DNA of 64,000 nt from assembly GCA_964469895.1 (NCBI GenBank), contig CAYYAB010000001.1, positions 1,695 through 65,694 of the forward strand. Reading direction: 5' to 3'. The position numbers and the translations under genes were made by a program. Numbering within the stretch: position 1 is the stretch's first letter; each line of letters begins with the position of its first letter. This document shows positions 1-18,289 of the stretch, piece after piece. Under the pieces are notes generated by a model. That model did not search any database. It was given only the letters and a program-made list of their open reading frames with translations, and was not told the origin of the DNA. This DNA is from an uncultured bacterium (GTDB lineage Bacteria > Deinococcota > Deinococci > Deinococcales > Marinithermaceae).

Positions 1-253
1 CTTCGAGCATCTCCTGGGCCAGAGGGTCTGAGAAGGGCTCCTCCCGTCGGTCGGTGGGGACGATGTGGTCCACGGTGGCGAAGGTCCGGTGGGGGAAGGC
101 CACCTTAAGCCCCCGCTCTTTCAGCATGGCGAAGGCCTGGGGGCTCGTCACCTCATGGATCAGGTGCAGGTCGATGAAGAGCTGGGTGCGGCCGTCGGGA
201 AGCTCGCGCACCGCGTGGGCTTCCCAGACCTTTTCGTAAAGCGTCTTTCCCAT
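1..253 (-). CDS. leuC: 3-isopropylmalate dehydratase large subunit, N-terminal part (continues beyond window start)
   Basis: Reverse-complement translation from the ATG at 253-251 gives [67 protein letters not shown]. This is the conserved aconitase-family LeuC N-terminus. An SD GGAGGGG lies just upstream. It is absent from the ORF track because it is open at the window edge. Confidence 0.85.
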
Positions 254-264
254 ATCCCCTCCAT

Positions 265-395
265 AAAAACAAAGCCCCCTCGCGGGGGCAGGCGGGCGAC
301 GCCGGCGCCTACCCCCGGAGCTTGAGGGCTAGGCTGGGCTTTGGCGTCTGCAGCATCTTGGGCGCGAGTATACGGGATGGCGTTTGCGTTGACAA
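265..395 (-). promoter_or_regulatory. candidate leucine leader/attenuator upstream of leuC (promoter, 15-codon mini-ORF, antiterminator/terminator)
   Basis: On the minus strand: TTGTCA (395-390), 17 nt, TATACT (372-367), 10 nt, then ATG..TAG at 356-309 encoding [21 protein letters not shown] (317-312) can pair with CCCCCG (288-283), which is the 5-prime arm of the hairpin GCCCCC-GCGA-GGGGGC (289-274). That hairpin is followed by TTTGTTTTT (273-265). Confidence 0.45.
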
Positions 396-417
396 GGCAA
401 AAAGAGCTCGTTAGACT
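389..417 (+). promoter_or_regulatory. sigma-A type promoter for tRNA-Pro (TTGACA, 17 nt, TAGACT)
   Basis: TTGACA at 389-394 and TAGACT at 412-417 with a 17-nt spacer. The tRNA starts 12 nt downstream. Confidence 0.6.
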
Positions 418-428
418 GATCCTTGCTG

Positions 429-508
<80 letters not shown>

Positions 509-510
509 TT

Positions 511-537
511 CCCCCGGCCGGAGGCCGGGGGTTTTTT
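511..537 (+). terminator. intrinsic terminator after tRNA-Pro
   Basis: CCCCCGGCC-gga-GGCCGGGGG hairpin followed by TTTTTT. Confidence 0.7.
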
Positions 538-555
538 ATGCGGTAAGGTAGGGGC

Positions 556-2163
556 ATGAAGCCCGTCAGCCTGCTCGACACCACCCTGCGCGACGGGGCG
601 CTCGCCGAGGGGGTGAGTTTTACCCCCGAGGATAAACTCGAGATTCTAAAGCTCCTCGATGCGCTCGAGATCGACTACCTCGAGGCCGGCTGGCCCTACC
701 AGTTTCCGGAGGATCTCGAGGTCTTTGCCCGCGCGCGGGAGCTCGGGCTCAAGGGCAAGCTCACCGTCTTCGGCTCCACCCGCCGGCCTGAAACCCCGCC
801 TTCCCGCGATCCCAATATCCGCGCCATGATGCGGGCCGAGACCGAGGTGGTACACGTCTACGGCAAGGCCTGGGAGCTCCATGTGGAGAAGGTGGTGCGC
901 ACCAGCCTGGAGGAGAACCTTCGCATGGTGCGGGATACCGTGGCCTTCTTCAAGGACCAAGGGAAGGAGGTGCTCTTCACCGCCGAACACTTCTTCGACG
1001 CCTGCCGCCGGGGGCGGGACTACCCGCTGAGCGTGGTGCAGGCGGCGCTCGAGGCCGGGGCCGACCTCATCGACCTGGGCGATTCGAACGGCTCCGCTCT
1101 TCCCAGTGAGGTGAAGAAGAGCACGCGCACGGTGGTCGAGCTGGCGGGCGAGGTGCCGGTGGGTTTCCACGGCCACAACGACTCGGGCCTCGCGGTGGCG
1201 AACGCGATCAGCGCGATCGAGGCCGGGGCCCGCCACGTCCAGGGTTCGGTGGGCGGGTACGGCGCCCGCTGTGGGATCACCGACTTCGCCACCCTGCTCC
1301 CGATCCTGAAGCTCCGCATGGGGCTTGAAGTGGTCTCGGATGAGGCGCTTAGGAAGCTCACCCCGATCACTCGGAGGATCGTGAACAAGATCGGGGTCGG
1401 CGACCTCGACTACCATCCCTTCGTCGGCTACAAGGTCTTCGCCCATCGCACCCACGCCCATATCGCCGCGGTACTCAGCGACCCCGAGTCCTACGAGCCG
1501 ATTCCCCCGGAAGCGGTGGGGAACGAGCGCAGGCTTCTGCTCCCCGGCATCGCCCAGGCGAGCTACCTGGAGGCCCTCGCCAGCCGGCTCGGGGTGGACC
1601 TTACCGAGGACACCGCCGCCAACCGCCGGATCAAGGAAGAGCTCTTAAGGCTCGAAAAGGAAGGGTATACCTATGAAGACGCCGAGGCCAGCTTCGAACT
1701 CGTGCTCGGCAAGCTCACCGGGCGTTTTCGCCCCTGGATCGAGGTGGAAAGGCTCCGGCTCTTCGAGGTAATCCGGGGCAAACTTCAACCGGTGGTCGAG
1801 GCCTCGCTCCGGGTCAAACTCGGCGGCCGCACCGAGTACGTCGCCGCGGAGGGCGAGGGGCCGGTGCGCACGCTTTTCATGGTGCTTAAAGACGCCCTCC
1901 TCGAGGAGGAGGCCGGGCTCGGTGAGCTCGCGGGTTACGTGCGGGCGCTTTCGCTCAAGGCGGTCCGGGTCCGCACCTTCTACCCCCGGGGCACCCGGGA
2001 GCTCAAGGCCCGGGTGACGATCACCCTCGCGGATGGGGAGCGGAGCTTCACCACCATCGGCATCTCCGGGGACCTGATTCAGGCGGTTTGGCAGGCGCTC
2101 TTGGACGGGATGGAGTACGGCCTCTACACCGAGGCCGAGCGGCGGAACCTCGTTTTGAGCTAG
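556..2163 (+). CDS. cimA: citramalate synthase / 2-isopropylmalate synthase family (LeuA-related, with C-terminal LeuA-dimer regulatory domain)
   Basis: The N-terminus [52 protein letters not shown] matches the DRE-TIM HMGL-like fold of the CimA-type subfamily (EGGWPGxNPKD-like motif). It is 535 aa and sits next to leuC. Confidence 0.8.
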
Positions 2164-2176
2164 GAAAGGAGGCGCC

Positions 2177-3046
2177 ATGGAGGTCCAAAAGATCGGTGTC
2201 GTGGGGGCCGGCCAGATGGGCTCCGGCATCGCCCAGGTGGCGGCCCAGGCGGGCTATGAGGTGGTGCTTAGGGACGTGGAGGAACGGTTTTTGGAGCGGG
2301 GACTTTCGTCCATTCGCCGCTCTCTTGGGAAGTTCTTGGAAAAGGGGAAGATTTCGAAGGAGGAGCACGACGCCGCTCTCGGCCGGATCAAGACGACGCT
2401 CTCCCTTAAAGACTTCGCCGACTGCGACCTGGTGGTCGAGGCGGTGGTTGAGGACGAGGGGGTGAAGGCCGAGGTCTTTCGGGAGCTGGATCGGATCGTG
2501 AAGCCCGAAGGGATTCTGGCCTCGAACACCTCCTCGATTCCCATCACCAAGCTCGCTTCCTACACGAGCCGGCCCGAACGGTTCATCGGGATGCACTTCA
2601 TGAACCCGGTGCCGCTCATGGTGCTGGTCGAGGTGATCCGCGGGCACCGCACTTCGGACGAAACCGCGGAGACCGTCGTCGCGGTCGCCCGCAAGATGAA
2701 GAAGACCCCGGTGGAGGTCAACGACTACCCCGGCTTCGTTTCCAACCGGGTGTTGATCCCGATGCTGAACGAGGCGATTCAGGCGGTGCACGAGGGGGTG
2801 GCGACGCCGGAGGCGGTGGACGCGGTGATGAAACTCGGGATGAACCACCCAATGGGCCCCTTGGAGCTCGCCGACTTCATCGGTCTCGACACCGTGCTCG
2901 CCATCATGGAGGTGCTTTACGAGGGATTTTCTGACTCCAAGTACCGGCCCTCGCCCCTGCTTAAGAAGATGGTCCAGGCCGGCCTTCTCGGGCGGAAGAC
3001 CGGCCAGGGCTTTTACAAGTACGACGAGAAGGGCCGGCGAATCTAA
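2177..3046 (+). CDS. hbd: 3-hydroxybutyryl-CoA / 3-hydroxyacyl-CoA dehydrogenase
   Basis: Rossmann motif [17 protein letters not shown] and a C-terminal [15 protein letters not shown] motif typical of the HBD/HADH family. Confidence 0.9.
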
Positions 3047-18148: not shown

Positions 18149-18169
18149 CGTTTCCCCCTCTTGGGCCCG

Positions 18170-18288
18170 AAAAAACCCCCGGTCCACGGGCGACCGGGGG
18201 GAAGCGGGTCCTTCCCCCGTCAGGCATGATCATTGCGGGCCCTGCGCATCTCGCTGCAAGCTTATGCGCCCTGCCTCCAAGGTGTCAA
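18170..18288 (-). promoter_or_regulatory. candidate Asn/Asp-sensing leader of aspS (promoter, 9-codon mini-ORF, antiterminator, intrinsic terminator)
   Basis: On the minus strand: TTGACA (18288-18283), 18 nt, TAAGCT (18264-18259), 9 nt, then ATG CGC AGG GCC CGC AAT GAT CAT GCC TGA (18249-18220). Next comes the hairpin GGGGGAAG/CTTCCCCC (18218-18197), which overlaps the terminator CCCCCGGTC-gcccgtg-GACCGGGGG-TTTTTT (18200-18170). Confidence 0.5.
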
Positions 18289-18289
18289 G

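Follow-up and report, generated by a model that had tools for sequence, protein, structure and literature searches.

A predicted ribosome-mediated attenuator with a single rare CUA codon upstream of leuC in an uncultured bacterium of the Thermus-Deinococcus lineage

Attenuation through short leader peptides has been described in several systems that can be set beside the one considered here. In the enterobacterial leu leader, rare CUA codons are the control codons and their replacement lowers the sensitivity of the response (Carter et al. 1986, as discussed in PMC1183508), and in theory a single control codon has a low sensitivity (PMC1183508), which counts against a sensor with one CUA such as that proposed below. 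For Deinococcus deserti, start-site maps have led to 14 leaderless leader peptides being predicted as attenuators; transcription of these leaders starts at or 1 nt before the AUG, just after the -10 box, and the short products are rich in whichever amino acid the following biosynthesis or tRNA-synthetase gene concerns (de Groot et al. 2014, PMC4007540). In mycobacteria, leaderless polycysteine short ORFs lie as first cistrons and act as cysteine-responsive attenuators through ribosome stalling (bioRxiv 10.1101/834739). A literature search, in which older subscription papers were sparsely covered, gave no account of a leu leader from Thermus or related bacteria, so that an earlier report is possible.

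The DNA analysed here is a window of 64,000 nt (contig C1:1695-65694) from a 1.86-Mb draft assembly of 213 contigs (67.7% GC, 91.5% complete), and the element of interest lies on the minus strand before a gene identified as leuC (TIGR00170, 637.7 bits against a cut-off of 560). We propose that this leuC(D) element is very probably a four-region, ribosome-mediated transcription attenuator, the leader peptide of which would sense charged tRNA-Leu(UAG) through a rare CUA codon. In plan it resembles enterobacterial leuL, with a short ORF before a leucine operon, 1:2, 2:3 and 3:4 hairpins, an intrinsic terminator and a preference for CUA (Carter et al. 1986, as discussed in PMC1183508). However, it gives no match to RF00512 (Rfam, E up to 10) and would work alike with no homology in sequence or structure. 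Whereas leuL has 28 codons and four consecutive Leu codons, the present leader has 15 codons and, in the source genus, one CUA; it also differs from leuL in having no Shine-Dalgarno sequence, a predicted 5' UTR of 0-3 nt, a stop codon inside the antiterminator arm and leuC, not leuA, as the first gene. The D. deserti leaders belong to the same phylum, and the start of the leuC leader is predicted from its -10 spacing where theirs were mapped; the choice of a rare codon and its conservation across the order, both found in leuC leaders, are not described in the main text of PMC4007540. The mycobacterial polycysteine ORFs differ in phylum and amino acid and consist of runs of the sensed codon, in contrast to the one rare codon here. 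Classical attenuators and the leaderless leaders of D. deserti make this a known kind of system, to which the present comparison would add the order-wide selection of one rare codon as the sensor.

A sequence-only reading of this DNA had placed a promoter, a mini-ORF, a hairpin, a Shine-Dalgarno sequence and the leuC ATG in this region, and all of them were found where they had been put when the sequence was read again (Table 1). It had also assigned the neighbours, tRNA-Pro and cimA, to the plus strand, as is indeed the case: tRNA-Pro(GGG) occupies 429-505 (+), divergent from the leuC leader, and the citramalate synthase gene occupies 556-2163 (+) (TIGR00977, above cut-off). A consensus scan over 1.2 kb returned two promoter-like sites (0.1 expected) and two terminator-like sites (0.8 expected), and the promoter and terminator of the leuC leader were both recovered independently in this way. 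An Rfam search of positions 1-3000 with E up to 10 matched only tRNA, and no leader or T-box family. On the plus strand, only about 19 nt separate the T-run in the tRNA-Pro terminator (511-531) from the start of the citramalate synthase gene (556), for which no separate promoter was seen between 505 and 556; the gene may be expressed by readthrough of the tRNA terminator or from a promoter inside the tRNA gene.

Table 1. Positions of the leuC leader elements in the window, predicted stabilities of the alternative RNA structures, and positions of the sister leaders
Feature	Position	Strand	Basis or remark
-35 box TTGTCA, leader promoter	390..395	-	Overlaps the -35 of the divergent tRNA-Pro promoter; region shared by both promoters in the consensus scan
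-10 box TATACT	367..372	-	17-nt spacer from the -35; consensus scan
10-nt gap, -10 to leader ATG	366-357	-	Sequence read
Predicted transcription start region, AAG directly 5' of the ATG	357..359	-	Predicted from -10 spacing
Leader ORF, 15 codons + UAG	309..356 (ATG 356-354)	-	Length and frame kept in relatives
Rare, putatively regulatory Leu codon CUA, codon 9	330..332	-	Invariant in genus g1
Region 1, GCCUAGCCCU	325..334	-	Pairs with 316-307 (1:2 hairpin), CUA pairing with the UAG stop
Region 2, antiterminator 5' arm, CGGGGGUAGGCG	306..317	-	Last two sense codons + UAG + 3 nt
Region 3, antiterminator 3' arm, CGCCUGCCCCCG	283..294	-	Overlaps the terminator 5' arm
Intrinsic terminator, GCCCCC-GCGA-GGGGGC (289-274), then TTTGTTTTT / UUUGUUUUU (273-265)	265..289	-	Scan, fold
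leuC Shine-Dalgarno GGAGGGG and leuC ATG	262-256 and 253-251	-	Sequence read
1:2 hairpin	334-325 with 316-307		-14.8 kcal/mol at 37 C; -6.8 at 65 C
2:3 antiterminator			-28.8 kcal/mol at 37 C; -17.5 at 65 C
3:4 terminator			-13.3 kcal/mol at 37 C; -7.4 at 65 C
ilvB leader	L113:1322-1500 (G000:C6)		TTGACG, 17 nt, TAGAAT, 10 nt, ATG (1361) to TAG (1441)
trpE leader, MKAFALRRWWPG, two TGG codons	G000:C28, ~1875 (reverse-complement coordinate)	-	Followed by hairpins and a terminator
aspS leader, Asn/Asp codons	Window 18149-18289		Genome-wide scan

The leader ORF reads ATG CTG CAG ACG CCA AAG CCC AGC CTA GCC CTC AAG CTC CGG GGG TAG. The four leucines, one of them encoded by CTA, that had been counted among its 15 residues are at codons 2, 9 (CTA, 332-330), 11 and 13. 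The ORF ends in CGG GGG TAG (317-309), GCGCCGGCGTCGCCCGCCT separates the stop from the terminator hairpin, and the stop is 55 nt 5' of the leuC ATG with the terminator in between. Because the -10 box is only 10 nt from the ATG (7-8 nt in other families), no Shine-Dalgarno sequence is possible in the leader; the 10-nt gap implies a 5' UTR of 2-3 nt, so that the mRNA would not be strictly leaderless, and we predict from the sequence a 5' UTR of 0-3 nt without a Shine-Dalgarno sequence. The gap of 7-8 nt in other families would make their leaders truly leaderless. This part of the leader is well kept among relatives: TTGTCAACGC at the -35 is found throughout genus g1 (alignment A1), 17 of the 19 family sequences aligned have TATACT, as do most other families, and family f1 shows CAAGATG with almost no variation. 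In the source genome, the ilvB leader has the same AAGATG spacing as the leuC leader.

The leuC upstream regions of 30 relatives and then of 80 more across the order (~110 in total) were compared, the sample comprising Thermus, Meiothermus and Truepera-like genomes together with the family of the MAG itself, which holds 23 species genomes and has Thermus-like (g7) and Meiothermus-like (g11) genera in its sister families. A LeuC-based locus search returned mostly unrelated phyla (Verrucomicrobia, Cyanobacteria); the nearest named relative that it gave was a hot-spring 'Thermaceae bacterium' MAG, with Meiothermus granaticius and a Trueperaceae MAG further off. In 26 of the 30 relatives of the first sample and in nearly all of the 80 others, a -10 box is followed after 7-10 nt by the ATG of a CTA-bearing short ORF and then by a terminator, which was at the matching place in 81 of 97 relatives. 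Order-wide, the layout consists of a -10 box that is mostly TATACT, a short ORF, a GC-rich hairpin with a T-run and the leuC Shine-Dalgarno sequence. In the MAG's own genus and family the ORF has 15 codons, except for one species with 14 through a 3-nt deletion, the sole indel in the genus. Codon 9 is CTA in every member of the genus and codon 7 is often CTA too; family leader ORFs always end in (C/T)GG GGG TAG, and none of the 19 family sequences aligned departs from GGGGGTAG. Apart from Leu9 and a C-terminus dictated by the RNA, the peptide is free to change, and Leu codons 2, 11 and 13 show no conservation, even among members of the genus. Beyond the family, Thermus-like leaders are of the MRRGFLLDLGRAGPA type, with CTG CTA GAC CTA, Meiothermus-like leaders have one or two CTA codons, and the longer Truepera-like leaders have CTG CTA or CTA CTA near their end; the flanking codons are completely changed between genera while CTA stays. 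Conservation of a leucine-rich ORF in relatives had been named as a check on the attenuator reading, and alignment bore it out for the ORF, its frame and CTA at codon 9 but not for leucine-richness. The proposal, already made in the sequence-only reading, that the hairpin and mini-ORF before leuC are an attenuator is strongly supported by the conservation of its elements across five genus-rich families, which is its main support. In the Deinococcus-like genus g6, LeuC of this type (E <= 1e-40) was absent from 74 of 76 genomes, and this genus presumably uses another isopropylmalate isomerase; ilvB was present in all 14 of the g6 genomes searched.

Selection on the rare codon was examined in leader ORFs that had been picked by promoter quality and spacing alone, to avoid codon bias. 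In this order-wide set, 85 of 87 distinct leaders contain CTA, which makes up 143 of 246 leader Leu codons (58%) against 2.7% genome-wide (3.3 per 1000 codons). Of the CTA trinucleotides in these leaders, 143 are in frame, as against 3 in each of the other two frames, and no formal probability is attached to these counts because the genomes are related. This in-frame excess indicates both reading of the leader frame and selection for the rare codon itself; with the 3-nt indel and the constant ORF length, it provides strong, if indirect, evidence of translation. The commonest distance between the last CTA and the stop is 7 codons. Judged from these counts and the alignments, the trait that is conserved is not leucine-richness but the occurrence of a rare CUA codon, or of two, at a constant position, namely codon 9, seven codons ahead of the stop. 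That CTA is kept merely for pairing with the TAG stop in the 1:2 hairpin was considered and rejected as a general reason, since CTA is retained in leaders that end in TGA or TAA and persists in ilvB leaders. The tRNA-Leu genes found in the genome by ARAGORN have the anticodons GAG (2), UAA (2), CAA and UAG (1). No tRNA-Leu(CAG) was found by ARAGORN in the 91.5%-complete draft, although CTG accounts for 21% of Leu codons; its gene may simply be missing from the draft. Were the gene really lacking, the common CUG would be read by tRNA-Leu(UAG) as well, which would then not be a minor species.

The last two sense codons, CGG GGG, had been noted as complementary to the terminator arm. This complementarity is present and proved to be longer than described, as the 2:3 helix CGGGGGUAGGCG:CGCCUGCCCCCG extends over 12 bp, one of them a G-U pair, and contains the UAG stop. 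When the whole leader is folded, its minimum-energy structure has this region 2:3 pairing, which takes in the terminator 5' arm; region 4 consists of GGGGGC and the U-run. The likeness to classical leu attenuation that had been claimed is strengthened by a region 1:2 hairpin (CUA:UAG), found in addition by folding and backed by two compensatory pairs, which completes a four-region model. When the ribosome was mimicked by masking 13 nt, beginning with the A-site codon, before folding, a mask at CUA gave the antiterminator as the minimum-energy fold in most family members and a mask at the stop gave the terminator fold in 79 of 81 sequences across the order, so that the two alternative structures, the folding of which had been suggested as a check, were both obtained in silico. 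Among 8 genus sequences, 91.5% of cells in the 1:2 helix were paired, with 2 compensatory pairs (for example GCCUA/UAGGC versus CGCUA/UAGCG), against 37-69% in slid controls, and 86.3% of cells in the 2:3 helix were paired, also with 2 compensatory pairs, against 37-71% in the slid controls of both helices, the structures tested having been derived from the same leader sequence. The core G5/C5 antiterminator pairs never vary and therefore give no covariation signal.

Folding energies set this leader apart less clearly. The whole-leader fold was not more stable than shuffles (z = -0.6). Occupancy of the terminator 5' arm by upstream RNA, before the 3' arm is made, was 0.84 for native sequences and 0.22-0.28 with a ribosome at the stop; with shuffled upstream segments it was about 0.5-0.65. 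The significance for a single sequence is weak, with p ~0.2 for the leuC leader locus of this genome. Because shuffles pair almost as often in GC-rich RNA, the case rests on conservation and not on folding energies, and in such RNA, on the evidence of these models, antiterminator pairing alone would argue only weakly for attenuation. By plain minimum free energy the antiterminator does not beat the terminator in Thermus and Meiothermus; the terminator is stronger there, and since it is the most stable fold, control in these genera would have to be kinetic.

We propose the following sequence of events for the leuC leader. Transcription would start at or up to 3 nt 5' of the leader AUG, and a ribosome would load without a Shine-Dalgarno sequence and translate the 15-codon leader. 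With leucine plentiful, the ribosome would reach the UAG stop and cover region 2, so that region 3 would pair with region 4, the terminator would form and RNA polymerase would halt before leuC. With Leu-tRNA(UAG) scarce, the ribosome would instead wait with the CUA of codon 9 in its A site. Ribosomes cover about 12-13 nt downstream of the A site, as judged from toeprint and footprint sizes, and region 2 starts 15 nt past the C of CUA. A ribosome stalled at CUA should accordingly cover region 1 and a further ~12-13 nt, ending just short of region 2, which would be left free to pair with region 3 as the 12-bp antiterminator; the terminator would then be blocked and leuCD transcribed. In the case of no ribosome at all, the 1:2 hairpin (CUA:UAG) should form first and permit termination. 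The sequence-only reading had supposed that a stall at the Leu codons generally would free CGGGGG. This holds in the model for CUA at codon 9 and fails for codons 11 and 13, as a ribosome stalled at either of these would itself cover the antiterminator arm, and they could not act as had been supposed.

Other explanations for the element have to be weighed against this proposal. One is that it is a leaky constitutive terminator or insulator beside the divergent tRNA-Pro promoter and that the mini-ORF is a chance frame that senses nothing; GC-rich hairpins and short ORFs are common in a genome of 68% GC, the overall fold is no better than shuffles, and antiterminator pairing is frequent among them. 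Yet the ORF has retained its frame, its length and the position of its CTA codon order-wide while adjacent codons vary, 143 CTA triplets are in frame against 3 and 3 out of frame, and ilvB, trpE and aspS are preceded by a like architecture with matched codons; we therefore hold this explanation to be very improbable. The position of CTA also bears on the possibility that the leader is an untranslated RNA switch, in which CUA would be read by an uncharged tRNA, as a T-box-like specifier, or by a protein, and would so choose between terminator and antiterminator. Conservation of CUA at the nucleotide level and its place within the 1:2 hairpin in the source genus would suit such a switch, and T-box leaders are known in this phylum. 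However, CTA is found at a fixed codon count from an ATG that lies 7-10 nt after the -10 box, indels are multiples of three, and CTA remains in frame in families with a different RNA context, other stops (TGA, TAA) and other hairpins, all of which leaves very little probability for a switch that is not translated. A T-box riboswitch or a known Rfam leader family was itself rejected, as Rfam (E up to 10) gave neither a T-box nor any other match in the leader, the length of which is only ~100 nt.

Another possibility is that the mini-ORF is translated for a purpose other than the control of termination, serving re-initiation at leuC or encoding a functional micro-peptide. For the Deinococcus-Thermus group among others, it has been proposed that a leader gene lying near a structural gene increases translation by re-initiation (PMC4833913), but in those cases the distance is 10-11 nt, whereas the leuC leader stop is 55 nt from the leuC ATG and has the terminator in between. 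A functional micro-peptide accords poorly with a peptide that is unconserved except for Leu9 and the RNA-dictated C-terminus, and we consider a role of either sort highly unlikely. Attenuation through a ribosome stalled at CUA remains the explanation that we prefer.

The leuC leader has counterparts elsewhere in the genome. A genome-wide scan of the 1.86-Mb assembly for short ORFs that have a -10 box before them, and a terminator followed by a long ORF after them, gave about eight loci, three of them matched in amino acid (aspS, leuC, trpE) and at least two of the rest in tRNA genes; with only about eight loci, the arrangement is not a common chance pattern. The sister leaders have the same promoter-to-ATG layout, a short ORF with cognate codons, a terminator and the Shine-Dalgarno sequence of the gene. 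The gene after the trpE leader is a 476-aa ORF resembling anthranilate synthase component I, and ilvB is the first gene of ilvBNC-leuA (G000:C6). The ilvB leader peptide, MPQGPVFSLVLGLVLISGPGAGDLRA, is encoded with Leu, Val and Ile codons, among them two CTA codons, and is followed by a strong terminator (GGCCCCCGGG-aaaaa-CCCGGGGGCC and a T-run). Across the order, CTA makes up 64 of the 123 Leu codons of ilvB leaders, the triplet occurring 64 times in frame against 4 and 3 out of frame, and the rare codons GTA and ATT are found beside it. leuS has an ordinary Shine-Dalgarno leader and no mini-ORF.

A broader proposition, the truth of which we judge to be evenly balanced, is that the branched-chain amino acid operons (leuCD and ilvBNC-leuA) across the Thermus/Meiothermus/Truepera order have near-leaderless leaders that sense a rare A/U-ending codon (CUA, with GUA and AUU in ilvB) and not runs of cognate codons, with tRNA-Leu(UAG) as a dedicated sensor; that the leuC leader of the source genus has reduced this to a single CUA that also pairs with UAG; and that the arrangement is independent of enterobacterial leuL and previously undescribed. 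With the leuC leader, the leucine operon of the Thermus-Deinococcus lineage would be added to those under classical attenuation, and the comparative statistics, which are strong, show selection on one rare codon rather than on amino-acid richness. The leader would also provide a natural and independent replicate of the enterobacterial CUA result, on which the theory of selective tRNA charging could be tested. As T. thermophilus (HB27/HB8) has a homologous leader of the MRRGFLLDLGRAGPA type, tractable genetics, purified transcription and translation systems and a structural record, an attenuator of one or two codons could be dissected there; a leader that is short (~100 nt) and needs no Shine-Dalgarno sequence suits biochemical and structural study. 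Together, the unannotated leaders of leuC, ilvB, trpE and aspS would constitute an amino-acid regulon overlooked by gene callers.

Several further arrangements were seen around the leaders of relatives. In two genera of the same family, g2 and g4, the leuC operon lies next to the ilvB operon and the two diverge (G013:C1:802197-805282, G011:C1:168831-171131), with their leader attenuators pointing away from each other within 0.5-1.2 kb; in the source genome the two operons are on different contigs. The whole spacer from -35 to -10 in Meiothermus-like leuC promoters (L011, L014, L034) is taken up by TTTGGTATACCAAA, a perfect palindrome of 14 bp. The palindrome looks like a putative repressor operator layered over the attenuator, and it is absent from the source genome's own genus. 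In leaders of genus g2 (L022, L024, L025), the terminator U-run and the bases that follow it (UUUUUCGUUGUCGGAACGAGGAG) can form a second hairpin over the leuC Shine-Dalgarno sequence, which may add translational control.
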